Positions 30,275 through 55,778 of a stretch of DNA of 64,000 nucleotides are shown in pieces; the first letter of the stretch is position 1, and each line of letters opens with the position of its first letter. The notes beneath the pieces were generated by a model, which was not told the origin of the DNA, did not search any database, and saw only the letters and a list, made by a program, of their open reading frames with translations. Made by a program: the position numbers and the translations under genes. The stretch is from Candidatus Micrarchaeota archaeon (GTDB lineage: Archaea; Micrarchaeota; Micrarchaeia; Norongarragalinales; Norongarragalinaceae). Location of the stretch: NCBI GenBank assembly GCA_964630975.1, contig CAZVVY010000002.1:44633-108632 (forward strand), written 5' to 3'.

Positions 30275-31204
30275 TTAAAGGTTGTCATTAGATAGTAGTA
30301 ACTTTATCTCTTTTCCTGTTTTTTTGAGTGCTTCCGCTTCCGTTATTTTTTCTTTTGGAAACGAAACGCCTCCTACGAGTTCGTGTCCGCCGCCATCGCC
30401 GTTCAACGCTTCTCCCAGCTTTTCGCACAATTCGGCGGCTTTTCCGGGCGCGTCCGCACGCTTTGCAACAGACATCCTGCCCTTTCCCGTTACGGCGGCG
30501 TACGCGCAACCCGCTTTCACGAGTAGTGCGGCGCAATGCAGTTGGTGTTGGAACGTGGAGGACAAGGCGTACAAGTAGCCGTTGCATTCCTTGACTTTCG
30601 CTTTTTTGAGGCCTTGCAACAAATCTTTTTGCTCTTCGAGTGAAGGAGGCTTTTGGACTGCTTTCAGGCACTTGCGGTAGGAGGCTCCTTTTTCAAGCAA
30701 CTCGATTACGCGCTTGAATGTTTCGGGTCCCGAGGACTCGAACCGGTGCGTATCCGATATGATGCCGCACAACAAGAGTTCGGCTTCCCTGGGCCCCTGC
30801 TTGACGAGCTTGGTAACGATTTCGGCGGTGCTGCCCGCCTTGGCATCGATTATTCCGGCCACGGAATCCGGTTGGATGTGGTGGTCGACCGCGAGCACGC
30901 GGCCTTCGAAGCCGTTCAACAAGTAATTCGCTTTTTTTCCGAGCACTTCGTAGTTGGAGCAGTCAACTAGGACCACGTTGTCGACTCCTTCCAAGGACTT
31001 GAGTTTGGGCGGGCGCGCGACGTCGAGCTCTTCCAACACGCGTTTTGCTTGCGAGTCAAGTGAGTCGCTTAAGGCGGCTTCTCCGCCGTAGTGGCGCGCC
31101 AAAACGATTGCGGAAGCGACCGCATCCACGTCGGCCAGCGAGTGCATGAGGAAAACAGTTTTGCCTTTCAGCCGCGGAAAACGCATAAAACGGTTATACG
31201 GCAA
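30275..31204 (-). CDS. DHH/DHHA1 family phosphoesterase (NrnA/RecJ-like)
   Basis: HSLADVDAVAS (motif I), LVDCS, AVDHHIQ (DHH) and GDGGGHELVGG (DHHA1 GGGH). Confidence 0.7.
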   Translation of the reverse strand: MPYNRFMRFPRLKGKTVFLMHSLADVDAVASAIVLARHYGGEAALSDSLDSQAKRVLEELDVARPPKLKSLEGVDNVVLVDCSNYEVLGKKANYLLNGFEGRVLAVDHHIQPDSVAGIIDAKAGSTAEIVTKLVKQGPREAELLLCGIISDTHRFESSGPETFKRVIELLEKGASYRKCLKAVQKPPSLEEQKDLLQGLKKAKVKECNGYLYALSSTFQHQLHCAALLVKAGCAYAAVTGKGRMSVAKRADAPGKAAELCEKLGEALNGDGGGHELVGGVSFPKEKITEAEALKKTGKEIKLLLSNDNL

Positions 31205-31232
31205 CGATTAAAATTGGTTTTCAGGACGGGTA

Positions 31233-31487
31233 TTATAATGTCTTGTAGACGCGGTCTCCCTGTCGGCACTCGCCGGAAACCTTCATTCCCACGCTTTGCC
31301 CGGCCCCCGCGCTTTCAACAGAGTCGTGCTCGATTTGCATTGATTCGACGACTTGCTCGAACGGCTCGCTTGCCTCAACGAATATTCGGTCGCCTTTCTT
31401 CAACGGCGCCGACAACTCGATTGCGGCAACGCCTATCTTCGAAAAATAGTTGAAAACCCTTCCAATCTCTTGTTTTTCGGTCATCAC
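31233..31487 (-). CDS. Small beta-barrel protein (EF-Tu domain-2-like)
   Basis: 84 aa: IGRVFNYFSKIGVAAIEL...KKGDRI...GQSVGMKV...GDRVY, the pattern of translation-factor domain II. Overlaps the pfdB stop by 4 nt. Confidence 0.4.
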   Translation of the reverse strand: MMTEKQEIGRVFNYFSKIGVAAIELSAPLKKGDRIFVEASEPFEQVVESMQIEHDSVESAGAGQSVGMKVSGECRQGDRVYKTL

Positions 31488-31852
31488 TCACTCACTTGCG
31501 CGCCCTCGCCTTCCTGCTTGGGCATCGATTTCTCCAACTCGCCCCTCAACTCGGCGCTCTTCTTCTGCAGTTTCTCGGTTTGGCTGTTGAACAAGGTTAT
31601 CCTGGAATCCAATTCCTCTTTTTCCTTCTTCAACTCTGCTTCCAACTCTTCCTTTGTGCGCGGCACGATTATGCCCCCCACGTACTTGTAGAACTTGTCG
31701 CCGCCCTTGCCCACTTCTTCGAGCGCCTTATCCAACTCCATTTTGCGGCCCTGTAAGGACTGCAACTGGTAGGTTATAAACTGGAGTTGTTGTTGTGCCT
31801 GCTGGAACTCGGCCAGTGCCTTGCGCGTTTCTTCATTCAATTCCTTTGCCAT
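31484..31852 (-). CDS. pfdB: Prefoldin beta subunit
   Basis: 122 aa coiled coil - beta hairpin (YKYVGGIIVPRTKEE) - coiled coil architecture. Confidence 0.8.
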   Translation of the reverse strand: MAKELNEETRKALAEFQQAQQQLQFITYQLQSLQGRKMELDKALEEVGKGGDKFYKYVGGIIVPRTKEELEAELKKEKEELDSRITLFNSQTEKLQKKSAELRGELEKSMPKQEGEGAQVSE

Positions 31853-32276
31853 CGTAAACCACCTTTGCCTTGAATTCGGGGCCGACTCGCTCGCCCCCGC
31901 ACTCGATGAATAACTTGTCTTTTTCCACCGTTATTACGTTTTCCCCGGCTTCGCTTTCACCGAACAATTTTTTCGCCCATTCAGGCCCCTTCACGGCGAA
32001 GCCCTTGCCGGCTTTTCCGCCGTGTTCCTTCAACCCCCTTAATTCAATTAACGGCTCCAACCAGCCGCCCTCGTAAAACGAGAGAACCGAAGGGTTGCCT
32101 TTCATCTCGTAAACGAGTAAGAGCCGCGAATAGCCGGCGGCACCCGCGCGCGCCGCCACTTCCGCCAGGCTGCGCTTGCCGCGGTTCTCGTACTTGCCGG
32201 TGACTCGGCCCAGAAAGCGGGCGACTCGGCGCGTCAGCTGAGACGGCTTTCGGGAAGTCGTAACGAATACGCTCAT
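31833..32276 (-). CDS. Brix/Imp4-domain ribosome-biogenesis protein
   Basis: MSVFVTTSRKPSQLTRRVARFLG...ENRGKRSL. I start at the ATG at 32276. The ORF-track extension to 32369 has no support and approaches the tRNA. Confidence 0.65.
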   Translation of the reverse strand: MSVFVTTSRKPSQLTRRVARFLGRVTGKYENRGKRSLAEVAARAGAAGYSRLLLVYEMKGNPSVLSFYEGGWLEPLIELRGLKEHGGKAGKGFAVKGPEWAKKLFGESEAGENVITVEKDKLFIECGGERVGPEFKAKVVYDGKGIE

Positions 32277-32393
32277 ACCAACATTACTCCTTAAACGAAT
32301 TAAAAACGCCGGGGCTGAGGAACCAAGTTGACTCCTCAACTCCGCTCGGTGCTTCGTCCTCGTCGTCAACTTCCGTTCACGGGTTTCTTTTAG

Positions 32394-32575
32394 CGCCGGG
32401 ACTGAGATTCGAACTCAGGCGGCCTTTCGACCACTGGTTTTCCAAAAACCCGCTTGCCCGCTTTGACTCCGCTTGATGCTTCGTCTTCAGCGGCCAACCC
32501 CGTTTACGGAACGAACGGTTCGCTTCGTTCGCGGGTTGTTCAAGACCAGCGCAATAACCACTCTGCCATCCCGGC
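32394..32575 (-). tRNA. tRNA-Ser(UGA) with a 99-nt intron at the canonical 37/38 position
   Basis: Hand fold. 5' exon: GCCGGGA-UG-GCA-GAGUGGUUAU-UGC-G-CUGGU-CU-UGA-A. The 3' exon AACCAG closes the anticodon stem, followed by the long variable arm UGGUCGAAAGGCCGC, T arm CUGAG-UUCGAAU-CUCAG, acceptor UCCCGGC and discriminator G. Intron is 32440-32538. No encoded CCA. Confidence 0.85.
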
Positions 32576-32757
32576 TTCCAATTATCTTTTTGACCTTTCT
32601 TTTTAATGAACGTTTTTCTTCGGGGAAGAAAAAAGTTCGCGCCAATAACCACTCTGCCATCCCGGCTTCCAATTATCTTTTTGACCTTTCTTTTTAATGA
32701 ACGTTTTTCTTCGGGGAAGAAAAAAGTTCGCGCCAATAACCACTCTGCCATCCCGGC
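32576..32757 (-). repeat. Two perfect 91-nt tandem units upstream of tRNA-Ser, each a 63-nt spacer plus a 28-nt copy of the tRNA 5' end
   Basis: The spacers at 32576-32638 and 32667-32729 are identical. The fragments at 32639-32666 and 32730-32757 (GCCGGGATGGCAGAGTGGTTATTGGCGC in RNA sense) match tRNA positions 1 to ~27 with one extra G. Confidence 0.95.
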
Positions 32758-32796
32758 AACAACGAATTAATATGTTCCCCGCGTCGTTTAATTGTT

Positions 32797-32886
32797 ATGC
32801 CTAAGAAGACGAAGTATGACGGCCTCGTTTACAACGTTACCACGGAGTCCGGTAATTTGTTTGCCAACGGCGTGCTCGTCCACAAC
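32797..32886 (+). other. Split-intein C-fragment (IntC, 30 aa)
   Basis: Hint blocks F/G: LVYNVTTE...[10 protein letters not shown], followed by the +1 Ser of the extein. Confidence 0.8.
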
Positions 32887-34143
32887 TCGGGCGGCCTCGG
32901 CACTCCGCCGCACTTGCGCGTTGAGCCGGGCGCGATTCACCGCGCACACAAAGGAGTACTGTTCATCGACGAAATCGCTTCGCTGTCGCCCAAATCACAG
33001 CAGGAATTGTTGACTGCAATGCAGGAAAAAAAGTATTCGATTACCGGGCAAAGCGAGATGAGTTCGGGCGCGCTAGTGCACACCGCGCCCGCGCCCTGCG
33101 ACTTCGTTCTCGTGGCTGCGGGAAACTACAAGGAGTTGCGCAGAATGCATCCGGCCCTGCGCAGCCGAATCCGCGGCTACGGCTACGAAGTGTACATGGA
33201 GGACTCGATGCCGGACACCGCCGAGAACAGGTGGCGTATAGTCGAATTCATCGCCCAGGAAGTGGAAAAGGATGGTAAAATACCGCACTTCAACCGCGCC
33301 GCAGTCGAATTAATCGTTAACGAGGCGCGCAAGCGCGCGGGCCGAAGAAACAAGTTGACCCTCAAATTGCGTGAGTTGGGAGGCCTCGTGCGCGCCGCGG
33401 GAGACGTTGCGCGCACACGCAAGCACAAGCTCGTCACCGAAAAAGACGTGAAGGAAGCGTTGAGTATCGCGACCACTCTCGAACAACAAATTTCGCGGCA
33501 AGTCGTTGACGCGCGCAAGGACTACCACGTGTTCCTGACCGAAGGCGCGCAAGTGGGCAAAGTCAACGGTCTCGCCGTAATGGGTGATTCCGGAATAATA
33601 ATGCCCATAGTGGCAGAGGCGGCGCCGTCCGCGTCCCGCGAGGAAGGCCGCGTAATCGCGACCGGTAAGCTCGGCGAAATCGCGCGCGAAGCCGTTGAAA
33701 ACGTGAGCGCGGTGTTGAAGAAATACCTCGGCGAAAACGTGCGCGCTTACGACTTGCACATTCAATTCCTGCAGACCTATGAAGGGGTGGAAGGGGATAG
33801 TGCCAGCATCTCGATTGCAGCCGCCGTGATTTCAGCGTTGCATGAGGTGGCAATCCGCCAGGACGTTGCAATGACGGGGTCGTTGAGCGTTCGCGGCGAA
33901 GTCCTGCCCGTTGGCGGGGTTACCGCGAAAATTGAAAGCGCTTTGGACGCGGGTTTGAAGACCGTTTTGATTCCGAAAGCGAATTACGAGGACTTGGGAA
34001 CGCTCGACAAAAAAGCGAAAAAACGCGTAATACCCGTTTCCAACATAATAGAGGTTTTAGAGGAGTCTTTGAAGCCCGGAAAAAAGAAGTCGGCGCTCAT
34101 CCGCAAAATGAAGAAGTCCTTCAAGGAAAACGGCTGGAAGTGA
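32797..34143 (+). CDS. lonB: LonB protease C-terminal half preceded by a 30-aa C-intein (split gene)
   Basis: [30 protein letters not shown] | [30 protein letters not shown] (Walker B)...[11 protein letters not shown]...[16 protein letters not shown] (catalytic Ser)...[10 protein letters not shown] (catalytic Lys). The Walker A and TM regions are missing here and are found at 55779-56780. Confidence 0.9.
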
Positions 34144-34827
34144 ATGGTTGCCGACGCCAAAACGATCTTTTCCTCTTTGTCCGAAGCCTTCGGGTCTTGC
34201 GGTTGGTGGCCCGTCAACGCGTCTTATGCTTCGCGCCCCCGTTTCCCCGAAAAAAACGCGGAAATCTTCGAAGTGATTGCCGGCGCAATACTGACACAGA
34301 ACACTTCATGGAAAAACGTTGAAAAAGCGTTGGCCAACCTTCGGGCCGCGAACCGTTTATCCGCCCGGGCAATCGCTTCTTGCCCTTTACCTGAATTGCG
34401 GGGGTTGTTGAAGCCGTCCGGCTACTATAACCAAAAAGCAGTTTACTTGAAGGGCGTGGCACGCCGCTTGAATGGCCGCGACCTCAAAAAATTTTTTTCG
34501 CGGCCCTTATCCAAACTAGGAAAAGAATTGATTTCGTGGAAGGGAGTCGGCCCTGAAACGAGGGACTCGATTTTGTTGTACGCCGCCGGAAAACCGGTGT
34601 TCGTGGTCGACGCGTTCACCCAGCGATTGGCGCGCCGTTACCCGTTGCCCGGCGAGTCGTACGCGCAATTGCAGGAGTTCTTCGAGTCATCCCTGCCGGC
34701 CGACGCGGAATTGTTTAACGAGTTTCACGCTTTGATAGTGGAACTCGCGAAGAGGCATTGCTTCAAGAAAAACCCGGATTGCGCGAACTGCCCGCTCAAA
34801 CACTCCTGCAAGAAAATCATTTCTTGA
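34144..34827 (+). CDS. HhH-GPD DNA glycosylase, endonuclease III-related, with a C-terminal Fe-S Cys cluster
   Basis: VIAGAILTQNTSWKNVEKAL, GVGPETRDSILLY (HhH), D in VVDAF, and CFKKNPDCANCPLKHSC. Confidence 0.7.
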   Translation: MVADAKTIFSSLSEAFGSCGWWPVNASYASRPRFPEKNAEIFEVIAGAILTQNTSWKNVEKALANLRAANRLSARAIASCPLPELRGLLKPSGYYNQKAVYLKGVARRLNGRDLKKFFSRPLSKLGKELISWKGVGPETRDSILLYAAGKPVFVVDAFTQRLARRYPLPGESYAQLQEFFESSLPADAELFNEFHALIVELAKRHCFKKNPDCANCPLKHSCKKIIS

Positions 34828-34969
34828 AGGAGTAAGCCACACAGGCAACGCCGAGAACAATCAATAAGTAGGGCCAGAACTCTTGTTCGGGCCACCAACC
34901 GAGTTTTTCGCCGAGCCAGAGCGCGCCGGCCGCGAAAAGCGACGCGCCGTAAACCCTTGAGTTGTTCAT
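34817..34969 (-). CDS. Small membrane protein (paralog of the upstream gene)
   Basis: 50 aa from the ATG at 34969 (MNNSRVYGASLFAAGALWLGEKLGWWPEQEFWPYLLIVLGVA...). Shares the G-WW...WP..L...G pattern with 34969-35259. The start overlaps the upstream stop. Confidence 0.4.
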   Translation of the reverse strand: MNNSRVYGASLFAAGALWLGEKLGWWPEQEFWPYLLIVLGVACVAYSFKK

Positions 34970-35259
34970 CAACGCTTCAACACGCTGGTTACCGCTATTA
35001 TGATTCCGACGGCCATTAGGATGGTAGGCCAAATCGGGAGGTCATAAGCCCACCAGCCCACTTCGTTTCCGAAGAAGAACAAGCCGAGCGCTATTAGTAT
35101 GAGACCTACTGCAATTGAGCCCGCGCCGTCTTCGTGGCAGCACTCGCCTTCTTCGGCGAGCTTCTCCATTTTCCTGCCGAAGCGTTCGGCTTCGCGCTCC
35201 ATCTCCTTTTCAACGTTCCTTTTTTTCTTAACCGTTTTTTTTCGAGCCAATTCAAGCAC
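34969..35259 (-). CDS. Small membrane protein with a charged N-terminal region
   Basis: 96 aa: a Lys/Glu-rich N-terminus, then two TM segments (IAVGLILIALGLFFFGNEVGWWAYDLPIWPTILMAVGIIIAV). Confidence 0.4.
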   Translation of the reverse strand: MLELARKKTVKKKRNVEKEMEREAERFGRKMEKLAEEGECCHEDGAGSIAVGLILIALGLFFFGNEVGWWAYDLPIWPTILMAVGIIIAVTSVLKR

Positions 35260-35325
35260 CTCTGGAATAAACTATTTTTTTCGGCGAATAAAAGGGGTTT
35301 TGATTGAATGAAAAAGAAGAATTAG

Positions 35326-35398
35326 CGCCTCGGCCGGGACTTGAACCCGGGTCGCCAGATTGACAGCCTGGAATGCTAGACCACTACACTACCGAGGC
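35326..35398 (-). tRNA. tRNA-Asp(GUC)
   Basis: Hand fold: GCCUCGG-UA-GUGU-AGUGGUCUA-GCAU-U-CCAGG-CUGUCAA-UCUGG-CGAC-CCGGG-UUCAAGU-CCCGG-CCGAGGC-G. 73 nt, no intron, no CCA. Confidence 0.9.
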
Positions 35399-35433
35399 AA
35401 ATGCTTAGTTTTGTGGGTGCAACGCTTATTTAA

Positions 35434-36411
35434 TTGTTCAGGAAAGCCGTTTTATTTCGTTTCTTCATTCTTTTTCTAATGGATTTCTTTTTGCCCCTCG
35501 CGATTCTATTGGCTTCGTTGGCGGCGCTCTACAAGTCGTCCGAGTTGGTCATAGAGTACGCTTCGGATTTGGCGCGCGCGTTCAGGATAGGGGACGCGGC
35601 AATAGGATTTTTTTTCTTGTCCATCGTTACTTCGCTTCCCGAGTTGTCGGTTTCTATTTTGTCGGCGTTGTCGGGCAACGTCGGCATTGCGGTGGGCAAC
35701 GTTTTCGGCTCGAACGTGGCCGACATAACTTTGGTTTTGGGAACTGCCGCGGTTTTTTCCAAGCTTGCCGTGAGCAAGCAGGTTTTGCGCGAAATAGTTT
35801 TCCTTTTGTTGGGTGTCAACCTCGTCACGCTCTTGTTGTTGACTTATGACACGGGGTCTCTCACCGGTTTTGCGTTGCTTGCGTTATTCGTTTATTATTC
35901 TTACAGGGTTTTCAACAACCCTTCGGCGGAAATCGCTTTGAGTGGCGGCGAGCGAGTGAACGTCCATACGAGTTCCGCCTTGTTTTTGGCTTCGTTCGCG
36001 GTAGTCGTATTTTCGTCGAATCTCGCGGTTGAAAACGCGGTTTTGTTGTCGGACTTGTTCGGCTTTTCGAAGACGTTAATCGGCGCAACCCTGATTGCGG
36101 CGGGCACTTCCCTGCCCGAAGTTTCGGTTACCTTGGCGGCGATAAGTAAGAGGAGGGCGAGTATGGCGGCCGGAAACGTGGTGGGCAGTTGCGTGGTCAA
36201 CTTGACTCTCGTGTTGGGTTCGGCGTTGGCTTTGGGTAACGCCATCGCCGTAAACAATTTCTTGAACCTAGTCGTTTTCTCGCTTGTCGCCAACACGGTT
36301 CTCGTTTACTTTTTGTTGTACAAGGAAAAGTTGGAGAGGCGCGAAGGCCTTATTTTGTTGGGGGGTTACGCGTTGTTCGTGCTTGCCTTGTTGGCGGGCC
36401 AAGCCTTTTGA
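35434..36411 (+). CDS. Ca2+/cation antiporter (CaCA family, YrbG-like)
   Basis: Two alpha-repeats, GNVFGSNVADITLVLG and GNVVGSCVVNLTLVLG, in a ~10-TM protein. Confidence 0.75.
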   Translation: MFRKAVLFRFFILFLMDFFLPLAILLASLAALYKSSELVIEYASDLARAFRIGDAAIGFFFLSIVTSLPELSVSILSALSGNVGIAVGNVFGSNVADITLVLGTAAVFSKLAVSKQVLREIVFLLLGVNLVTLLLLTYDTGSLTGFALLALFVYYSYRVFNNPSAEIALSGGERVNVHTSSALFLASFAVVVFSSNLAVENAVLLSDLFGFSKTLIGATLIAAGTSLPEVSVTLAAISKRRASMAAGNVVGSCVVNLTLVLGSALALGNAIAVNNFLNLVVFSLVANTVLVYFLLYKEKLERREGLILLGGYALFVLALLAGQAF

Positions 36412-36422
36412 GTAAGCGTGAG

Positions 36423-36557
36423 TCCCGCAGGCCAGATTTCCAAAACGCCTTTTTCTTTTGAAAAGAAAAAGTTTTTTTTTTGAACTGGCAACCCCCTGAT
36501 ATCCACTTGGATTTTCTAACTACAGTCAGGTGCTCTGCCAAATTGAGCTACTGCGGG
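36423..36557 (-). tRNA. tRNA-Tyr(GUA) with two introns: 19 nt at 37/38 and 42 nt inside the T-loop
   Basis: Hand fold: CCCGCAG-UA-GCUC-AAUUUGGCA-GAGC-A-CCUGA-CUGUAG[19-nt intron 36501-36519]A-UCAGG-GGGUU-GCCAG-UUCAAA[42-nt insert 36437-36478]U-CUGGC-CUGCGGG-A. The C1-G72 pair is typical of archaeal tRNA-Tyr. The mature length would be 74 nt. Confidence 0.8.
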
Positions 36558-36599
36558 TCAGCAACTCTTATTAAGTGAATTGCTTTTTTAATAAACGTT

Positions 36600-38117
36600 A
36601 TGCGTAAAACTCGATTGAGTATGGCCGCCTTGTTGTTGTTGGCCTCCTGTTTTGTGGTTGCCGGCGACTTGGAGGATGAAGCCGCGATTTACTCGAGGGA
36701 AGGCGAAAGCGTTTCGATAGTCGACGTTTCCGCGGGCGGCAACGCGTACCACTTCGTTTTATTCGACGACATTGAAGGCGTGGTGTTAAAGAAGGTTTCG
36801 GGCGGGTTTGAGGAAGTCAACGAATCCGAAGAATTGTCGCAAGCGGTGAGAGCTTACCAAGAACACGTCTTCAACGAGTTGGGCGTGGGCAACCTTTCGA
36901 CGGTTAGCTTGGAACTCGACTACTTCCTCGGCTTAGTGCATCCTTGCTGGTACGGATGCGACTTTTTGGGGAAGCAGAAAGGAAGCCAGTTTTATTTGTT
37001 CACTAAGACTGCACGCAACGACTTTCCGCGCTCTTTCGCCGTCTTGGACGAGTTAGAAGAATACCCTCCCTACCTTTACGACGCGATGAGCGCGGTCAAC
37101 GAATCATTTCTTGCGTTGGAATCACAGATTAGCGCGGGCGACGCGGACGGAGTAATCCGAAGCTTTTCAACGATTGAATCCAATTTGGATACGGTTAACG
37201 AGTACTACGATGAGTTGGCTTTCGTTCAAGACGAAATAATTTCCGAGTGGAGCTCCGACATATTCTACGTTTTCAGGGAGCATCGGCGGTGCGACAAGGC
37301 GACGCAAGTCGACGAATCCGTTTCCGTGCTCAAGTCGATGATTGCAACCGGTAACCGCGTGCCCAGCAGCGAGTTGTTGGAACGCTTGCAAAAAGAGTCC
37401 GAAGAGCGGGCGCCCATCGCCCAACGCCGCCGAATCGTTAGGACGCGCGAAGGCGCCTTATCCGACATTCAGAACACTACGCGGGAAATATCCGAATTGT
37501 TTTCTTCCAGCTTGTCCCTTGAAGAACTTAATTCAAAGGTTTCCGAACTCGAAGCCATTTACGCCGACTTGGAGGCCGCCGAAGACTTGTCGTCCGCCCA
37601 AGAATACGAGCAGCAATTCGACGCGAAAAAAGAAGAGGTCTACTTCATTTTAGAAGGTTACCAGGACTTTTACTCTTATTACAACGAGTCGGCTTATTCC
37701 CTCGGCCAAGCCGAGGAAAACGTGGAAGGGGCAGTCAAGAAGTACGGCTCCAACGACGAGCGTGTAATAGATTTGCAAAGCGATTTACAGGGCTTGCGCT
37801 CGCAATTGTCGCTTGCACAAAACCAGTTGGCTTCGGGCGCCGACCCCGAAGTGAAGACGCTGCTTGAAGGCATAACCGCGAACGCCACCTCGCTTTCAAC
37901 GCGTGCCGTCGAAATGAAGGCCCGCGAAAACGAGTTGGACTTCGTGTTAATCGGCGGAATCCTGTTGTTGTTTGCAAGCGCGGCCGCGATATTCGTTTAC
38001 TTCAAGAAGTACAAGGAGGAAGAGCCGCCCGAAGTGGACGTATCCGAGTTGCGCGACACTTCGACTTCGGCTTCGCCGGGCAGCATCGTGGAGCCGGGCG
38101 GCGAAAACCAACCTTAA
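36600..38117 (+). CDS. Hypothetical acidic surface protein (signal peptide plus C-terminal TM anchor)
   Basis: N-terminal MRKTRLSMAALLLLASCFVVAG, a long acidic helical region, and a C-terminal TM (VLIGGILLLFASAAAIFVYF) followed by KKYKEEE. Confidence 0.5.
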   Translation: MRKTRLSMAALLLLASCFVVAGDLEDEAAIYSREGESVSIVDVSAGGNAYHFVLFDDIEGVVLKKVSGGFEEVNESEELSQAVRAYQEHVFNELGVGNLSTVSLELDYFLGLVHPCWYGCDFLGKQKGSQFYLFTKTARNDFPRSFAVLDELEEYPPYLYDAMSAVNESFLALESQISAGDADGVIRSFSTIESNLDTVNEYYDELAFVQDEIISEWSSDIFYVFREHRRCDKATQVDESVSVLKSMIATGNRVPSSELLERLQKESEERAPIAQRRRIVRTREGALSDIQNTTREISELFSSSLSLEELNSKVSELEAIYADLEAAEDLSSAQEYEQQFDAKKEEVYFILEGYQDFYSYYNESAYSLGQAEENVEGAVKKYGSNDERVIDLQSDLQGLRSQLSLAQNQLASGADPEVKTLLEGITANATSLSTRAVEMKARENELDFVLIGGILLLFASAAAIFVYFKKYKEEEPPEVDVSELRDTSTSASPGSIVEPGGENQP

Positions 38118-38150
38118 TAGCGTTTGGAAAACACAATTTTTTCTTCCAGA

Positions 38151-38223
38151 GGGAGGTTGGGGTAGCCTGGCATCCTACCGGCTTTGGGGGCCGGCGACCC
38201 GAGTTCGAATCTCGGACCTCCCA
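38151..38223 (+). tRNA. tRNA-Pro(UGG)
   Basis: Acceptor GGGAGGU/ACCUCCC, anticodon arm CCGGC-UUUGGGG-GCCGG (U33, UGG, G37), and T arm CCGAG-UUCGAAU-CUCGG, followed by a T-run. The D-arm register is slightly ambiguous by hand. Confidence 0.8.
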
Positions 38224-38229
38224 CTCTTT

Positions 38230-38490
38230 TTATTGGATGTGTACGCCGAGCAACTCCAAGATTATTAGTGCGCCCACTCCCGCCAAACCGAAGATTGCGG
38301 AAACGAGTACCGTCAATAAGTTGATGCTTATTTCGAGTTCGTATGATGCGCCCAGCCAGTTCACCGCCAAAAGGGCGAGCACGCCGAGTACGGTGTTCAC
38401 GAGCACGCGCTTGATTATTACCGCGAGTATTACTGCCATTATTATCAGAAATACTGCGAGTCCCCACAAAGGTAAAGCGAATCCAATCAT
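38230..38490 (-). CDS. Small integral membrane protein (BofA-like?)
   Basis: 86 aa with three hydrophobic segments. Overlaps the nnrD stop by 4 nt. Confidence 0.4.
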   Translation of the reverse strand: MIGFALPLWGLAVFLIIMAVILAVIIKRVLVNTVLGVLALLAVNWLGASYELEISINLLTVLVSAIFGLAGVGALIILELLGVHIQ

Positions 38491-39227
38491 TTGAGTGCCT
38501 CCGGTAAGGCGCGAGCCAAGTCCTCCGCATTGAATACGCGCCGTTTCTTTTTTAGTTTGTCGCCCGCCTTCCCGTTAATCCAAGCCGCGGCGCAAGCCGA
38601 CTCGAACGCCGGGTTTTTACAGTGTAACGCCGCGCACAACCCTGCGAGAACGTCGCCCGTGCCCCCGCGCGCCATTACCTCGTTTCCGGTCTTGTTTTCC
38701 ACGACTCGTTTTGGCGAGGCGACGAAATCGGTTTCTCCTTTCAGCAACACCGCGCAGTCGTTTTCCCTTGCGGCCCGAAAAGCGTTTTTCTTTCCCGCTT
38801 TCAAGCCGAACGCATCTTCGAATTCGCGGGAGTGCGGCGTAACCAAACAGTTCTTGAAAGAGTCCGCCATCCTTATTGCGCCCGCGTCGAGAACCGTGCG
38901 CCTCGCTTTTTTTACTACGCGGTTGACGAGCCGCTTGTTTGACGCGTTGACCTCCAAACCGTTTCCGACGAGCACGCAATCGAATTTTTCGGGCTCCATT
39001 TTTTTCTCGGTTATGAAACACTTGTTTTTTTGTTTTTCTTGCGCGTTTGGGGGGTAAGGCGAGTAGTAATGCACCAAGTCGGTGAAGCGCGAAGCGGCTT
39101 CGATTGCCAGCAGGGGTGCGCCGTGGTATTTTTGGGAGCCGCCGACTATGAGCAGGCGCCCGTTAACTCCCTTGCGTCCCTTGCGCGTGAGAACGATTTT
39201 TTTGAGTATGCTTTTAGCCAGCGCCAT
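38487..39227 (-). CDS. nnrD: NAD(P)H-hydrate dehydratase (YjeF C-terminal carbohydrate-kinase domain)
   Basis: LLIVGGSQKYHGAPLLA, VLDAGAI and ARGGTGDVLAGL. Confidence 0.7.
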   Translation of the reverse strand: MALAKSILKKIVLTRKGRKGVNGRLLIVGGSQKYHGAPLLAIEAASRFTDLVHYYSPYPPNAQEKQKNKCFITEKKMEPEKFDCVLVGNGLEVNASNKRLVNRVVKKARRTVLDAGAIRMADSFKNCLVTPHSREFEDAFGLKAGKKNAFRAARENDCAVLLKGETDFVASPKRVVENKTGNEVMARGGTGDVLAGLCAALHCKNPAFESACAAAWINGKAGDKLKKKRRVFNAEDLARALPEALK

Positions 39228-39249
39228 AACTTCTTAACCCGCGCAAGAT

Positions 39250-41229
39250 TTAAACGATTTCGGAGTCGCCGTCCTTAACAACGCGGAAAACCTTGTCCGC
39301 GAACGCCTCCAACTCGCGCTCGTGCGAAACCACGATGACTTGCCCGTTAATCGAGTCGAATACGGCGCGCATTTTGTAGAGTTGTTCCTTGCTGAAGCCG
39401 TCGGTGGGTTCGTCCAAAATCAAGAGGTTTTCCTTTAATGCCGGGTATTCGCGGCGCGTCAACTCGTTTAGTGCCAGGCGGTAGGCGAGTGCAACCGCCG
39501 TTTTTTCCCCGCCGCTCAACGCGTTAACGTCCTGCTCGTAGCCGTCCTGCGTTATTTGCGGCGCGAACGACGCGTCCACTCGCGCATCCAATTCCGAGCC
39601 CTCCAACAAAGCGAAAACCCATTTGCGGAATTGCGAGTCGAACTCGCGGTTGATTACTCCGAGCACTTCTTCTTCCACGTTTTCCACGGTTGGAACGAAT
39701 TTTTGGTCGAGCCATTCTACGCGCTCTAATAGTTCGGTCAGCCGCTTTTTTTCCGAGCGCGCCTTTTCAAGCCTCTTCCTTTTCTCATTCAACAGCGAAT
39801 CCTTTTCTTCGAGTTTTGCCTTGGCGCGCTCCAAAGCTTTTTCGAGACGTGAAAACGCTTCTTCGCTTTCGCGCAACTCTTTTTTTGCTTGTTCCCATTC
39901 CTTCAGCGACGACGATAATTCTTTGATTTCCTTCTTTTTTTGTTTTAATTCGCGCCGTTTTTCCTCCAACTCTTTTTCTTCGCGTTCAACGCGCTTCTTC
40001 AATTCAACGGCGCGCTTTTCCGCTTTTTTCGCGGCTTCCAAGCGCAACTCGAATTCTTTTCTTGCTTGGGCGAGGCGGCGCGCTTCGTCCAAGCGCTTTT
40101 CGAGTTCGGCTGCGCGCGCCTCGGCTTCAACGGATTCCTTCAACAATTGTTCGGCTTTTTTCGCCTCGCTTTCGGCGTCGCCAACCATTTCGCCGCTGAT
40201 TTTTTGTCCGCAAGTCGGGCACCTGCCTTGCTTTGCCAAATCCTTTTTCCTTTTTGATTCGGCCCTCAAAACCGCTTCCTTTCTTTTTGTTTCGGTTGCG
40301 AGTTCTCGTGCCTTCAACCATTTTTTGTGCAGTTCTTCCGGGGTTTCAGCCGGTTTTTTTGGCTCTTCCGGCTTTTCAATTTGCAGTTCCCCCCGCTCTT
40401 TTTTCACGGATTCCAAGGAAGACTCTATTCGTTGCACCAGCGTCGAGAGCGAGTTAACGGATTCCCGTGCCGCCGCGGCCTCCGACTTTTTTTCCTGTAA
40501 TGCGGCTTCTTTTTCGCGGGCTTTTTCAAGCGAGTCGGATAAGCTCCGCTTTTTTTGTTCCGCGGACTCAACTATTTTTTGTAATTCTTTTTTTTCCTCC
40601 CCCAATTCTTCGACGACCTTCTCGTCTTCTTCAAGGCCGCGAGTCGAGCCCCGCAAGTACTCGCACTTCTTCTTTATTTGTGAGGAATACGTTTTCGCGT
40701 TGTCGCGCGCCGACTTGTATTCTTCGACTCCGAAAACTTTGCGCAGGGTTTGCAGGCGTTCGTCCGGCTTTTCGTTGAGCACGGCTTTCATTTCTTCCTG
40801 GGGAGTGAAAACCGCGTAACGGTAAATTACGCTAGTGTTCCTAGCGCCTTCGGGCTCGTTGAAGCCGAGTATTTTCAGTATTGCGGGCTTCATTTCGGAC
40901 GGCGAGTAATCGGTTTCGACTCCGTCCACTTCGATTGAGCCCTTGGTTTGAGCGACGCGGCCCGACTTCTTTTTTATGCCGCGCTTGACGCGCACTCGTG
41001 AGCCTTTCACTTCCAAGGCCACTTCGACGCTTGCCTCTTCAGCCCCGTGCCGCAACAAGTGCGAGGCCTTCAACCCGCCCAAGCCGAACAACGCGAATTC
41101 TATTGCATACAAAATAGTGCTCTTGCCGGAGCCCACGTCGCCTTCCAATAGCACGGAGCCGGCCGGCAATTCCAAGTCGGCTTTCTTGTAGGAACGAAAG
41201 TTTTCAACTGTTACGCGGCTTATCCTCAT
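39250..41229 (-). CDS. rad50: Rad50 ATPase (short form, 659 aa)
   Basis: Walker A GDVGSGKST, zinc hook CPTCGQ in the middle of the Glu/Lys-rich coiled coil, signature LSGGEKTAVALAYRLAL, and Walker B LLILDEPT. Confidence 0.9.
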   Translation of the reverse strand: MRISRVTVENFRSYKKADLELPAGSVLLEGDVGSGKSTILYAIEFALFGLGGLKASHLLRHGAEEASVEVALEVKGSRVRVKRGIKKKSGRVAQTKGSIEVDGVETDYSPSEMKPAILKILGFNEPEGARNTSVIYRYAVFTPQEEMKAVLNEKPDERLQTLRKVFGVEEYKSARDNAKTYSSQIKKKCEYLRGSTRGLEEDEKVVEELGEEKKELQKIVESAEQKKRSLSDSLEKAREKEAALQEKKSEAAAARESVNSLSTLVQRIESSLESVKKERGELQIEKPEEPKKPAETPEELHKKWLKARELATETKRKEAVLRAESKRKKDLAKQGRCPTCGQKISGEMVGDAESEAKKAEQLLKESVEAEARAAELEKRLDEARRLAQARKEFELRLEAAKKAEKRAVELKKRVEREEKELEEKRRELKQKKKEIKELSSSLKEWEQAKKELRESEEAFSRLEKALERAKAKLEEKDSLLNEKRKRLEKARSEKKRLTELLERVEWLDQKFVPTVENVEEEVLGVINREFDSQFRKWVFALLEGSELDARVDASFAPQITQDGYEQDVNALSGGEKTAVALAYRLALNELTRREYPALKENLLILDEPTDGFSKEQLYKMRAVFDSINGQVIVVSHERELEAFADKVFRVVKDGDSEIV

Positions 41230-42392
41230 TCGAGTGCCGCCTCCGCTTCACTGCAAACGCGGGCCTCAAAGTCCGCCTTTCTTTCGCCCGGCATTTGCTC
41301 GGTCTTCAACGCCTTCAACAAGCGCATTGCTTTCGACGGTTCGCCGAACGCCTGCGTGAACAACTCTTTTTCGATTTCGCCTCGTTCCCTTGCCTTGACG
41401 CGCACGCGCTCGACGCTTTCGCGCTCCAACGAATTCTTGTTCACGTAAACGGTTTCCGAAGGGAAAAACGCTTTTACGGCGCCCCAATCTACTTCGCCGG
41501 GGTTGCCCTTCATTTCGCCGGATACCTTGACCAATGAAACGTCGCACTCTTTTTTCGGCAACGCCTTCAATCCCTCTTCAAGCCGTTCGGGTGAAAACCC
41601 GGAAGCGTCGAACCCGTATGATTTTATGCTTCCCGCGTCAACTTCCACGAATTCCGGCTCTCCGCCTTCGCGGAAAACGTAGAAGCCCGTCTTATGCTTC
41701 GACAATTCTTCGAGGTCGCGGAAGTCGCTAGCCCACAACGGGCCGGGGTAAACCAGCGTGCCCCCGCGCTCTTTTTCGACTCGGCGCTCGTGCACGTGGC
41801 CCGAAGCATAGTAATCGAACCCTTTCGGCAGCAATGAAAGGGGAACGCCTGCAACGCCTTTCAAGTAATCGGGCTTGTATCTCTCGATTGCGGAGTGAAA
41901 CACGAACACTTTTTTTCCTTTTTCTTCTTCCAACGGCGCCAAGTCCAAGTCCTTGAATGCCTCCAATTCGAGGCCGCCGCGCCGCGCACTCATCCCCGCT
42001 ATTTTCACGCCCGTCTTTTCGTCCTCGACGAAACCCAGCTTCAATTTTTCGTTTTCGTACTCTCCGAAAACCGCTTTTGTCAGGATGCCCGCGCTCGCCA
42101 ACACGTCGATTATGCTTGCCTCAACAGGTGAATAGTCGTGGGAACCGTAAACAACGTAAATCCTTCTCCCCGAATCCGTGAATTCGCGCATCTTTTTTAC
42201 GGCGCGGTTGACTACGCGCATTTCGGGGAGCGGCGTGTGAAACAAGTCGCCCGCTATGATGACGAAGTCGAGGTCGGATTGAATGCAGTAATCCATTGCT
42301 TCCTCGAACGCGCGCAAATTGCGTTCGCGGAGCTCGGGCTGGCGGAATGCGCCGAGGTGCACGTCGGCCAAGTGCGCAAAAGAATACGGCAT
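41226..42392 (-). CDS. mre11: Mre11 nuclease
   Basis: Phosphoesterase motifs HLADVHLG, IAGDLFH, YGSHD and SGHVHE. Overlaps the rad50 start by 4 nt. Confidence 0.9.
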   Translation of the reverse strand: MPYSFAHLADVHLGAFRQPELRERNLRAFEEAMDYCIQSDLDFVIIAGDLFHTPLPEMRVVNRAVKKMREFTDSGRRIYVVYGSHDYSPVEASIIDVLASAGILTKAVFGEYENEKLKLGFVEDEKTGVKIAGMSARRGGLELEAFKDLDLAPLEEEKGKKVFVFHSAIERYKPDYLKGVAGVPLSLLPKGFDYYASGHVHERRVEKERGGTLVYPGPLWASDFRDLEELSKHKTGFYVFREGGEPEFVEVDAGSIKSYGFDASGFSPERLEEGLKALPKKECDVSLVKVSGEMKGNPGEVDWGAVKAFFPSETVYVNKNSLERESVERVRVKARERGEIEKELFTQAFGEPSKAMRLLKALKTEQMPGERKADFEARVCSEAEAALE

Positions 42393-52456: not shown

Positions 52457-53869
52457 ATGAATTTTGAATCGACCGCCGAAACAAGCATTCCAAAGGACCC
52501 GCTGGAACAAGTCATCGGGCAGGATAACGCGGTTCACATAGCCAAAGTCGCGGGCCGGCAGCGCCGCCACTTGTTGATGGTCGCCCCGCCGGGCACCGGC
52601 AAAAGCATGATTGCGCAGGCAATCGCCTACCACTTGCCGAAGCCGACCGAGGAAATCAGCGTCCTCCACAACGCGGCTAACCCGGAGCGCCCGGTACTCG
52701 AAGTGCGTTCCACAGAGGAAGCCGCCAAGGAAGACGCTTTGGCCCAGGGAGTTCGCGGCAGGCTCGTCGAACCAGTGGAAGTCCCTTCGTTCGTAGCCGA
52801 ACGCCTCGGGTTCCGCTGCCGCAAGTGCGGGTCGCTCAGCCGCGCCTCGCAAAAGGCGTGCCCCAAATGCGGGTTCGACAAGCGCTTTTCGGAGAACCCT
52901 TTCCCAAACATTTACGTCGGAGTAGAGGAAAAACCGGAGCGCGTGCACACTACGCGCCTTCGCGACGACAACTCCGAGGAAGTAATCGTTTACGAGCGCG
53001 CCGGGGAAAAAGTGCGCATACTCGACCAATCCTCCTTGCAAGCGTTGGAGGACTTGAAGAGGCGCGGCCCGCGCAAGGTACTCGTGCCATTCGACCGCAA
53101 GCCGTTCGTGGTCGCCACGGGCTCGTCCGAAACCGAGCTCTTGGGCGACGTCAAGCACGACCCTTACGGGGGCCACCACCAAATCGGGACTCCGGCCTAC
53201 CAGCGAGTCGTCCCCGGGGCGATACACGAAGCCCACCAAGGCGTGCTCTTCATAGACGAGTTGAGTGCATTGGCGGGAGTGCAACGCTACTTGTTCACGG
53301 CGATGCAGGAAAAAAAGTATGCTATTTCCGGCCGCAACCCTCAAAGCGCGGGCGCAAGCGTGCGCGTGGATGCCGTGCCCTGCAACTTCATACTGGTCGC
53401 GGCAAGCAACATAAACGACTTGCCTTACATTTTGCCGCCTTTGCGCTCGCGCATCAAGGGCAACGGCTACGAGGTCTTGCTGGAAACCGTGATGCAGGAC
53501 ACCCCGCAAAACCGCGAAAAACTCTTGCAGTTTACCGCCCAAGAAATACGCAAGGACGGAAAAATCCCGCACGCAAACCCGAAAGCAGTCGAAGCGTTGT
53601 GCGACGAGGCACGAAAAATCGCGCGCGAATTCGACGGCGCCGAAAACTCTTTGACCCTGCGCTTCCGCGAGTTAAGCGGGTTGATTCGCTTGGCAGGCGA
53701 CATAGCCGTCGGCAAAGAAGCAGAATTAATCGAGCCGGCATTCGTCAAGGAAGCAGCCGAACGCGGCAAAAACATCGAACAACAATTAAGCGAAAAATAC
53801 GGGTCGGTGTGGCGCGCCTCGCAAGAGGAAGCCGCGAAGACGCGCGGCCGCCAAAAGGAAGTCGGCTAA
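52457..53869 (+). CDS. LonB-like AAA+ ATPase lacking both TM helices and protease domain, with a zinc-ribbon insert
   Basis: Walker A APPGTGKS, the insert CRKCGSLSRASQKACPKCG, and LLGDVKHDPYGGHHQIGTPAYQRVVPGAIHEAHQGVLFIDEL (Walker B), RSRIKGNGYEV. The protein ends after the AAA+ lid with no GDSAS/K protease motifs. Confidence 0.75.
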   Translation: MNFESTAETSIPKDPLEQVIGQDNAVHIAKVAGRQRRHLLMVAPPGTGKSMIAQAIAYHLPKPTEEISVLHNAANPERPVLEVRSTEEAAKEDALAQGVRGRLVEPVEVPSFVAERLGFRCRKCGSLSRASQKACPKCGFDKRFSENPFPNIYVGVEEKPERVHTTRLRDDNSEEVIVYERAGEKVRILDQSSLQALEDLKRRGPRKVLVPFDRKPFVVATGSSETELLGDVKHDPYGGHHQIGTPAYQRVVPGAIHEAHQGVLFIDELSALAGVQRYLFTAMQEKKYAISGRNPQSAGASVRVDAVPCNFILVAASNINDLPYILPPLRSRIKGNGYEVLLETVMQDTPQNREKLLQFTAQEIRKDGKIPHANPKAVEALCDEARKIAREFDGAENSLTLRFRELSGLIRLAGDIAVGKEAELIEPAFVKEAAERGKNIEQQLSEKYGSVWRASQEEAAKTRGRQKEVG

Positions 53870-54345: not shown

Positions 54346-54858
54346 TTAACTACTCATTGCGAAGCCGAGCACTTGCGCCGCCTTAACGGTCCACTGGCCC
54401 TTGACGGTTTCCGAGTCGGCTTCCACGAACACTTTTCCTCCGTCAACGTAAATGCAGTTGCATTCGCCTATCAACAACACGATGTTCGGGTTCGAACAGT
54501 TATTGGTTTCGTCGGTGCACCCGATGTTTTCTTCTCCGGGCACCGTGCCGTACGTCCACAATTCCTTGCCCGCCTTGCGGGCTTCGTCGGCGACTTGAAC
54601 CATTAACACGCTTAACGCGGAGTTCAACTCGCTTTGGCCCGAGTACATCCTGGCCTCGCTCACCAGGCGGTCCGACGACAACGCGTCCTTGACTTCCTGC
54701 CACCCGCTTTTAACGATTACGCCGTTAACCTTTTTTTCACTGGGTTGGTTTGACAACGCGAACAACACGATTGCCGAGAAAACGCCGATGCCCACTATTG
54801 CGAGCACGAGTGCCTCGAACTTGTTGCCCTTCTTTTTTTCTTTTTTCTTCTTCGTCAT
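54346..54858 (-). CDS. Hypothetical membrane-anchored protein
   Basis: Lys-rich start followed by one TM (ALVLAIVGIGVFSAIVLFAL) and an extracytoplasmic domain with several Cys. Confidence 0.4.
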   Translation of the reverse strand: MTKKKKEKKKGNKFEALVLAIVGIGVFSAIVLFALSNQPSEKKVNGVIVKSGWQEVKDALSSDRLVSEARMYSGQSELNSALSVLMVQVADEARKAGKELWTYGTVPGEENIGCTDETNNCSNPNIVLLIGECNCIYVDGGKVFVEADSETVKGQWTVKAAQVLGFAMSS

Positions 54859-55742
54859 ATCGTCAACTCCAATCCTTCTCTTGCAAGACTGCTTTCTTCG
54901 AAAACCGTTTTCGCTTCTTCAAGCAACGGCTCGCGGTCTTCATAGCGGTTGCTGAAATGCGTTAACAACAATTTTTGTGCTCCCGCCTTTTTAGCGGTTT
55001 TGGCGGCTTGCAGGGCCGTGGAATGCTTTTTTTCCTTTGCCATTCCCGCCTCTTTTTCCGAGAAGCACGAATCCATTACCAGCAAGTCCGCTTTTTTCGC
55101 TGCACCCGTCAATTCCTTGCAGGGCGCGGTGTCGCCGCTGAAAACTATTTTTCTGCCGGGCTGCCTGTAAGTAACGTCTTTAAGCCGCACTTTTTTCCCG
55201 TTGATTTTCAACTCTTTTTTCTCGGATAACTCGGAGAACAAGCGCCCCTTCACGCCCAGCGACTTCGCTTTTTCCTCGTGAAAACGCGTTTTTTCGGGTT
55301 CCTGTAATGTGTAGCCCACGGCCGGGCACCCGTGTTCGACCGGGAAGGCCTCGACCGAAAACAACTCGCATTCGAATACGCGGCTTTTTCTCACGTCTTT
55401 AACGGTTACGGGGAAAGAAGTGCGCAGTTCGCGGGTCGCAAACAAGGTTTCAAAAAAGTTTTTTGTGCCGCGCGGGCCGAAAACTTTCAGTTCGCGTTGA
55501 CGGCCCGACATGTTCATGGTCTGCGTCAAGCCGAGCAAGCCCAGCCAGTGGTCTGCGTGCAAGTGCGTCAAGAACACGGCGTCCGTTTTGGCGTAGCTCA
55601 CGCCGTACTTCATCATTTGGCGTTGCACGCCTTCACAGGCGTCGAACAAGTAGACTCCTCCATAGCGCACCGCGTAGCACGCGGGCACGCGCCGCTTCGT
55701 GGGCAGGGACGCCGCGCTTCCAAGAACCGTCAAACCAATCAT
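54855..55742 (-). CDS. rnz: Ribonuclease Z (tRNA 3' endonuclease)
   Basis: LTVLGSAASLPT, the FLTHLHADHWLGL metallo-beta-lactamase motif, and LTHFSNRY at the C-terminus. Confidence 0.82.
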   Translation of the reverse strand: MIGLTVLGSAASLPTKRRVPACYAVRYGGVYLFDACEGVQRQMMKYGVSYAKTDAVFLTHLHADHWLGLLGLTQTMNMSGRQRELKVFGPRGTKNFFETLFATRELRTSFPVTVKDVRKSRVFECELFSVEAFPVEHGCPAVGYTLQEPEKTRFHEEKAKSLGVKGRLFSELSEKKELKINGKKVRLKDVTYRQPGRKIVFSGDTAPCKELTGAAKKADLLVMDSCFSEKEAGMAKEKKHSTALQAAKTAKKAGAQKLLLTHFSNRYEDREPLLEEAKTVFEESSLAREGLELTI

Positions 55743-55778
55743 ACAATATAGATATATTTCGCAAACCGTTTTATTACG

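Follow-up and report, generated by a model that had tools for sequence, protein, structure and literature searches.

A dispersed split-intein lonB in a micrarchaeotal genome: the gene probably fractured in place before its C-terminal half moved to the flank of a tRNA-Ser gene

In the naturally split inteins of N. equitans PolB (NEQ068/NEQ528) and cyanobacterial DnaE, an essential gene is divided at the intein and its two parts lie at distant loci, with an N-terminal intein fragment (IntN) of ∼100 to 120 amino acids (aa) and a C-terminal fragment (IntC) of ∼30 to 36 aa that ends in HN and is followed by a nucleophile. Inteins of the LonB protease are familiar in contiguous form from Euryarchaeota, such as the Pyrococcus Lon inteins listed in InBase, which are one-piece and located in the AAA+ module. 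Fractured genes and a gene-breaking model, of which step IV is the uncoupling of the halves, were described by Dassa et al. (2009, Nucleic Acids Res 37:2560, PMC2677866). Here we analyze lonB in a 64,000-nucleotide (nt) stretch (the window) of contig CAZVVY010000002.1 of a Candidatus Micrarchaeota genome, GCA_964630975.1, referred to as G000, which is a metagenome-style assembly of 735 kb in 18 contigs and ∼90% complete. The gene is present as an N-half and a C-half, and we conclude that this is a case, like PolB and DnaE, of a natural split intein with dispersed halves, in a new host protein and with a documented fractured-gene ancestry. Its history is quite probably one of fracture in place, with the C-half relocated later to the flank of a tRNA-Ser gene and with the truncated tRNA copy (stump) found there arising in a separate event.

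The two lonB genes consist of the following parts.

32797 to 32886, plus strand: IntC, 30 aa (MPKK...GVLVHN), with blocks F/G and the HN end, then Ser+1
32887 to 34143, plus strand: LonB C-extein, with Walker B, AAA-LID, and the Lon_C protease domain with its GDSAS serine (Pfam)
55779 to 56444, plus strand: LonB N-extein, with Walker A and a membrane hairpin, ending ...GDCRHDPFQ (Pfam and homology)
56445 to 56780, plus strand: IntN, 111 aa (SFSPDTTV...TPEH...ELITQ), plus stop, with blocks A and B

The C-half open reading frame (ORF; 32797 to 34143, plus strand) codes for 448 aa, in which blocks F/G end with Asn, Ser stands at +1, and the C-extein starts SGGLGTPPH; it has Pfam matches to Lon_C (4.5e-30) and LonB_AAA-LID (2.2e-10) and is 63 to 87% identical to the lonB C-parts of 60 relatives. 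IntC matches the Neq Pol IntC (NEQ528, PDB 5OXX chain B) weakly (E = 0.07). It is 30 aa long because the frame upstream is closed by a TAA at 32737 to 32739, 60 nt before the ATG, with no ATG, GTG, or TTG among the 19 codons between; the length is the same in the congener G001 and is 33 to 50 aa in other relatives. The N-half ORF (55779 to 56780, plus strand, stop codon at 56778 to 56780) is 45 to 79% identical across relatives. Its IntN carries block A (Ser1, DTxV) as well as block B (TPEH). It has homologues in the IntN of 20+ relatives and, in G036 and G049, in the N-part of the one-piece intein, and has no Pfam model above threshold and no significant PDB sequence match. The first-pass annotation had described a 30-aa IntC with no alternative start, a C-half that precedes the N-half on the same strand, and a divergent arrangement of the C-half with the outermost truncated tRNA-Ser copy; all of this is borne out, with the halves ∼23 kb apart and a spacing of 39 nt from C-half to tRNA copy. 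A six-frame search of the whole genome (∼90% complete) revealed no intact lonB, only the two halves and a LonB-like paralogue. The G000 gene thus has the hallmarks of a split intein, with one insertion site, separate ORFs each having their own start and stop, blocks A/B and F/G, and no intact copy.

The motifs expected of a working protease and intein are all kept, including Walker A, Walker B, the GDSAS serine, the protease-dyad lysine, the intein Ser1, TPEH, HN, and Ser+1. We infer that LonB is made from two genes whose products undergo trans-splicing by a naturally split intein, because both halves and the catalytic residues are conserved across more than 20 genomes. Each half also has an A/T-rich box ahead of it, AATTAATA at 32765 to 32772 (25 to 32 nt 5' of the C-half ATG) and TTTTATTA at 55769 to 55776 ahead of the N-half, and from their positions these are candidate archaeal promoters of leaderless mRNAs. 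The N-half ORF is called from a TTG at 55779, 36 nt from the start of the RNase Z gene, although its true start may more likely be the GTG at 55797, with TTTTATTA 21 to 28 nt upstream, giving a leaderless mRNA. LonB differs from the hosts PolB and DnaE in being a membrane AAA+ protease and not a polymerase, with splicing predicted from the sequence. The intein begins with Ser here, and with Ser, Thr, or Cys in relatives of the split family. The residue before the terminal Asn also varies among these relatives, and is His, Ser, or Lys (as in VLCKN of G005, FLVSN of genus g9, and ILASN of G036); such variability at predicted intein catalytic positions, seen across loci L007 to L066, is unusual. 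A further difference from PolB and DnaE is that a single archaeal order retains the intein in one-piece, fractured, adjacent, and dispersed form.

These forms were compiled by searching 60 genomes of the same order for lonB; lonB loci were retrieved from 45 of the 60, and N-half and tRNA-Ser loci from subsets (families and genera are denoted f and g). The gene is intein free in ∼29 genomes, has a one-piece intein in 5, adjacent halves in 4, and halves at separate loci in 21, and none was found in 2; the two kinds of relatives against which the first-pass annotation would have its proposal judged, with contiguous intein-bearing and with intein-free lonB, therefore both exist. The insertion site is the same in all forms (DPFQ/SGGLGTP, the slash marking the intein), and the ancestral locus is recognized by its neighbor.

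54855 to 55742, minus strand: RNase Z-like metallo-beta-lactamase gene, marker of the ancestral lonB locus (Pfam Lactamase_B_2, tRNase Z)

In all intein-free genomes whose loci were retrieved (families f1, f2, f7, f8, and f9), lonB and RNase Z are arranged head-to-head, and they are likewise divergent in two genomes with a one-piece intein (G036 and G049) and three with adjacent forms (G003, G017, and G054). The N-half holds this RNase Z-adjacent place in all split f1 genomes, G000 included, and the C-half is therefore the piece that left. Family f10 is reversed, with the C-half beside and co-directional with RNase Z and the N-half elsewhere.

The intermediate forms show where and how the gene came apart. 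G036 has a one-piece intein with an endonuclease domain (LGTAFGDGG..., with a weak LAGLIDADG_3/Intein_splicing match), and G049 has a one-piece mini-intein. G017 has an ORF for N-extein, IntN, and endonuclease that overlaps by 4 nt with an ORF for IntC and C-extein. In G003 (f1) and G046 (f9) an N-half, a free-standing endonuclease gene (344 and 374 aa, respectively), and a C-half are all adjacent; the free endonuclease has no significant match in Pfam or PDB sequence searches, and is clearly homologous to the endonuclease domain of G036. G054 has adjacent halves and no endonuclease gene, and in G016 (g10) the N-half and free endonuclease gene stay together with the C-half on another contig, so that uncoupling cut between an endonuclease gene and a C-half gene that were already separate. 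The break between IntN and IntC coincides with the endonuclease-domain position of the one-piece relatives, and no endonuclease remnant is present at either half's junction in the window. With such in situ fractured forms at hand, a chromosomal break inside a contiguous intein is not needed for the split, and lonB most likely fractured in situ, with the halves uncoupled later.

G003 and G046 have exactly the arrangement of the fractured genes of Dassa et al. (PMC2677866), retaining N-half, free endonuclease gene, and C-half at the original locus and in the original orientation, and the dispersed state of G000 corresponds to their step IV; G000 itself is unlike a fractured gene in that its halves are 23 kb apart with the C-half first and no endonuclease gene. 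There are other differences. The enzymes at the loci of Dassa et al. are GIY-YIG or Vsr-like and of kinds not known from inteins, whereas the enzyme here is LAGLIDADG-like and homologous to the in-frame domain; those loci are on phage-like metagenomic fragments, whereas the hosts here are cellular DPANN-sized archaea; and G016 is uncoupled with the endonuclease gene still present. One archaeal order thus holds every stage of the gene-breaking model for a single insertion site, including a stage in which N-half and free endonuclease gene are in place and the C-half is gone (G016). This shows how a naturally split intein gene becomes dispersed, supports a succession of fracture followed by scattering, and speaks against a chromosomal break as the cause of the split. 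A literature search on split inteins together with Lon or DPANN gave no description of a LonB split-intein family. New here, too, are the polarity of the move (it was the C-half that departed, while the N-half stayed), a minimum of three independent uncouplings, the replacement of an ancestral S10/tRNA-Ser linkage by the C-half, and the argument that the tRNA stump is not the scar of the split.

Two further observations were made at the lonB insertion site. Families f2 and f7 (G056 locus L037, G041 locus L038, and G045 locus L040) have a second, unrelated intein allele at the same position, with Cys1 (CIPGG... or CIPAG...) and the ending ...LTHN, in full-length and mini forms. G046 has two C-halves and two N-halves (L024 and L026/L066), one set at the fractured locus and one on short contigs, which may reflect a strain mixture or a real duplication.

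The events that we propose begin with an ancestral lonB, head-to-head with RNase Z, that would have carried an intein with a LAGLIDADG-like homing endonuclease at DPFQ/SGGLGTP. This gene would have fractured in place into N-half, endonuclease gene, and C-half, each with its own start and stop, and later rearrangements would have cut between genes that were already independent, separately in several lineages. In the lineage of g1 and g5 (and probably also g9) the N-half would have stayed by RNase Z while the C-half landed head-to-head with tRNA-Ser(UGA), displacing S10 and EF-1alpha. The tRNA 5' stump, along with its hairpin and promoter-like box, would be a separate and probably later event in the g1+g5 ancestor, and the second 91-nt copy a recent tandem duplication in G000 only. 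The order of these events is what we infer from the forms and neighborhoods that survive, and relocation would then be a lineage-specific event at a recombination-prone tRNA flank and not the origin of the split. The features at that flank are as follows.

31833 to 32285, minus strand: conserved gene of ∼147 aa, companion of tRNA-Ser(UGA) (in 32 of 35 genomes)
32393 to 32575, minus strand: tRNA-Ser(UGA), with a 99-nt intron after position 37 (ARAGORN intron mode)
32552 to 32642, minus strand: inner 91-nt unit, whose 24-mer at 32552 to 32575 is the real tRNA 5' end (repeat search)
32643 to 32757, minus strand: outer 91-nt unit (32643 to 32733) plus a terminal 24-nt stump copy at 32734 to 32757 (repeat search)
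32758 to 32796, no strand: junction of 39 nt between the outer stump and the C-half, holding the AATTAATA box (read from the sequence)

Domains were assigned with Pfam and tRNA genes with ARAGORN, for which intron mode was needed here; tRNA-Ser(UGA) with its intron is missed by default ARAGORN and by Rfam. The 147-aa gene adjoins tRNA-Ser in 12 genomes of two families; it belongs to no Pfam family, and a likeness to Brix-domain proteins is seen by eye only. The C-half lies beside tRNA-Ser(UGA) and the 147-aa gene in seven genomes, G000 and G001 of g1, G005, G013, and G018 of g5, and G009 and G020 of g9. G001, an independently assembled congener, has the order 147-aa gene, tRNA-Ser, junction of ∼40 nt, C-half, and HhH-GPD gene, and its junction is conserved as AACAAGGAATTAATATGC...TTTAATTGGTTATG. 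In the outgroup genome G031 (f7) the order is EF-1alpha, S10, tRNA-Ser, and 147-aa gene, and G012 (g4) and G006 (g6) have the same type of order with one to three ORFs inserted before tRNA-Ser. In G000, S10 and EF-1alpha are on contig C9, where no tRNA-Ser fragment lies beside them, and the C-half block takes their place. The upstream flank of tRNA-Ser(UGA) is thus a real synteny breakpoint and the end of the C-half relocation. Elsewhere the C-half has different partners: in g10 (four genomes) it lies between a helix-turn-helix gene and unrelated genes with no tRNA, and in f9 and f10 it is likewise not beside tRNA-Ser.

Small ORFs separate tRNA-Ser from the C-half in g5, and the flank of tRNA-Ser is on this account a variable islet. 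They form a family of 120 to 190 aa (G005 L008 5199 to 6828, G013 L009 3861 to 4313, and G018 L010 6281 to 6646) with a C-terminal motif like ...NGNL.FT.KEHGF.L.G...GRKR, three tandem paralogues in G005, and no Pfam match. Two g9 genomes differ in the orientation of the tRNA-Ser(UGA) gene, and of that gene only, with respect to the C-half (G020 L013 294 to 400 versus G009 L012 4172 to 4255; blastn identities are 76% for the tRNA, matched on the minus strand, and 86% for the C-half, matched on the plus strand). The G020 contigs end nearby, and the difference may stem either from a local inversion or from assembly at a site prone to recombination.

The stump has a narrower distribution than the junction. 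In G000, tRNA positions 1 to 24 are present in three exact copies (32552 to 32575, 32643 to 32666, and 32734 to 32757), the latter two being stumps, and the copies of the two repeat families here (D1 and D2) are 100% identical and 91 nt apart. Each 91-nt unit is composed of tRNA-Ser positions 1 to 24, ∼8 degenerate nt of the anticodon stem, a T-run/hairpin, and a ATTAAAAAGAAAGG box. A homologous single stump-plus-hairpin is located 91 nt upstream of tRNA-Ser in G013 and 116 nt upstream in G018, with tRNA positions 1 to 24, a degenerate anticodon-stem piece, the hairpin GGAC-T6CTTC...GAAGA5C-GTCC, and a ATTAAAAAGAAGG box. No stump is present in G001 (where there is a trace of 6 nt at most), in G005 or G009, or in six outgroup genomes; it is thus confined to G000 (twice), G013, and G018 in genera g1 and g5, with the two-copy repeat in G000 only. 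Since the junction in g9 has no stump, the most economical order is relocation, then stump, then duplication, which would probably make the stump the younger of the first two. The stump cassette at tRNA-Ser and the split in lonB look linked, but they are most likely independent events at a recombination-prone flank. We also considered whether the stumps belong to a split or trans-spliced tRNA, and no sequence able to pair with a separate 3' half was found.

Trees were built from lonB exteins plus RNase Z (924 columns) and from EF-2 plus RpoA (1,531 columns). Both unite g1 with g5 (support 100) and g3 with g10 (98 and 96). A layout of C-half, tRNAs, Rad50/Mre11 ... DnaG, paralogue, RNase Z, and N-half, all on one strand, is common to G000 and G005 and is therefore older than the g1/g5 split. 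The adjacent form of G003 is sister to the dispersed g10, so the g10 uncoupling is independent of that in g1/g5(/g9), and f10 is a third; there are accordingly at least three independent uncouplings of the lonB halves, with different partners.

Several points weigh against this history. Neither marker set recovers a g1+g5+g9 clade or settles where g9 and the deep branches of f1 belong, although approximately unbiased (AU) tests do not reject that clade (P = 0.48 and 0.29), nor one that unites every split f1 genus (P = 0.52 and 0.36). Should g9 belong elsewhere than with g1+g5, the C-half would have arrived at this tRNA on two occasions, and chance would then be a poorer explanation than targeted capture. 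In G000, G013, and G018 the edge of the C-half block coincides exactly with the stump, which may alternatively have been made by the relocation and lost in g9, G001, and G005. Intein-free genera may be nested among the split ones, which would require repeated cassette invasion or lonB allele replacement. Lastly, synteny is scrambled beyond two to three genes, and several rearrangement paths would serve equally.

The genes that follow intact lonB in G007 and G012 have their counterparts on G000 contigs C8, C2 (115 kb), and C10, and those of G006 have theirs elsewhere; in none of these three genomes do the genes following intact lonB match the block downstream of the G000 C-half. Two inversions, a block interchange, or a tandem duplication with reciprocal loss all fit the observed order of C-half before N-half on the same strand. 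A single inversion, from the gap between N-half and C-half to the gap between S10 and tRNA-Ser, was considered and rejected; it fits the head-to-head junction and predicts that the halves lie on opposite strands, with S10 following the N-half, and neither prediction holds. There is no foreign-island signal, with G+C content flat at 0.50 to 0.59 across 24 to 62 kb.

A different account of the junction has the 5' half of tRNA-Ser(UGA) as the attachment (att) site of an integrase-type element or of site-specific recombination, which carried in the C-half and perhaps its neighbors and left the stump as an att repeat. We regard this as unlikely, although the locus does resemble the tRNA-linked integrative elements of archaea in having a partial tRNA direct repeat next to an intact gene and a variable gene island: the stump spans approximately tRNA positions 1 to 33 with its own terminator-like hairpin and promoter-like box, zero to three ORFs lie between S10 and the tRNA and one to three small-ORF copies in g5, and the inversion of the tRNA gene alone between two g9 genomes is at the junction. 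The possibility, raised above, that g9 is not sister to g1+g5 would mean that the site was struck twice. However, such elements usually repeat the 3' half of a tRNA and here it is the 5' half, the repeats enclose only 67 nt (hairpin and promoter-like box) with the relocated C-half outside the pair, and no integrase was found by Pfam in the ten neighboring ORFs scanned (30275 to 42392 in part) or in the g5 small ORFs. Base composition is flat across the block. Furthermore, with ∼30 to 35 tRNA genes and an estimated ∼800 genes in G000, ∼8% of intergenic gaps touch a tRNA, so that one of at least three uncouplings being located at one is unremarkable. It is equally doubtful, in our view, that recombination repeatedly targets the 5' flank of tRNA-Ser(UGA) in a site-specific manner and that this flank captured a free C-half, possibly twice (in g9 and in g1+g5), with the stump-hairpin-promoter cassette as the footprint; if true, split-intein halves would be dispersed by a defined mobile mechanism and not by random rearrangement.

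The first-pass annotation had proposed instead that one rearrangement cut a contiguous intein-bearing lonB in its endonuclease or linker region, with the other breakpoint at tRNA-Ser and the tRNA 5' fragments as its scar. Parts of this stand, in that the IntN/IntC boundary is at the endonuclease position of one-piece relatives, the tRNA-Ser flank is a synteny break versus the outgroups, and a stump marks the block boundary in three genomes. As an explanation of the split, however, it is very unlikely. In situ fractured and adjacent forms (G003, G046, and G017) are known, within the same family too, and the endonuclease gene of G016 stays with its N-half; both halves have clean starts and stops with no endonuclease remnants at either junction; and one inversion would place on opposite strands two halves that are on the same strand. 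The supposed scar fares no better, being absent from g9, which has the junction, and duplicated only in G000. Relatives with the same split, unrelated flanks, and no tRNA are found in g10, f9, and f10, which by the criterion of the first-pass annotation itself refutes a general link to the tRNA. Perfect short tandem repeats can be misassembled, and this is a metagenome-style assembly of 18 contigs, but a chimera joined at 32757 to 32797, or a 91-nt repeat that is an assembler loop, is so improbable as to be set aside, given that tRNA-Ser and the C-half are neighbors in seven independently assembled genomes of three genera, the junction sequence itself recurs in G001, and G013 has the same 91-nt spacing of stump and tRNA.

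The sequence of the stump has further relatives in the genome. A fourth exact copy of the 24-mer is the start of a two-intron tRNA-Ser(GGA) gene (contig C3:16077 to 16277), which shares its first 24 nt and last 13 nt exactly with tRNA-Ser(UGA) and has introns after position 37 and in the T-loop; it is missed by ARAGORN even in intron mode. A TTTCTTTC...GAAAGAAA hairpin is common to the T-loop intron of tRNA-Ser(GGA), the intron of tRNA-Ser(CGA) (C2:114196 to 114336), and the 67-nt stump spacer, and the T-loop intron and spacer both end ...TTGGAA; the shared hairpin suggests a common family of intron-like elements. On the 3' side of tRNA-Ser(UGA), 32339 to 32382 (minus strand) is a degenerate copy of part of the intron, 75% identical to 32466 to 32509, and is followed at 32307 to 32319 (minus strand) by CTCAGCCCCGGCG, which is like a tRNA 3' end. 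The equivalent place in G001 (L007, ∼3100 to 3165) has a hairpin plus GGTTGCAAATCTCGGCCCAGGCG. The degenerate intron copy together with CTCAGCCCCGGCG may be what remains of an old tandem copy of tRNA-Ser.

Two other genes near the lonB halves are of note.

34144 to 34827, plus strand: HhH-GPD base-excision repair gene (Pfam HhH-GPD, 1.9e-16)
52457 to 53869, plus strand: protease-less LonB-like AAA+ paralogue, 52% identical to the AAA part only

The ATG of the HhH-GPD gene abuts the C-half stop codon (TGAATG). The AAA+ paralogue is present in all 60 relatives and is without a Lon_C domain by Pfam; it is no substitute for lonB. Elsewhere in the genome, the RNA polymerase A subunit is a single frame of ∼1,131 aa (contig C3, from ∼91143), as it is in most relatives (1,130 to 1,190 aa). 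The A' and A'' subunits are separate genes in most archaea, and the length of this frame suggests that the two are fused.

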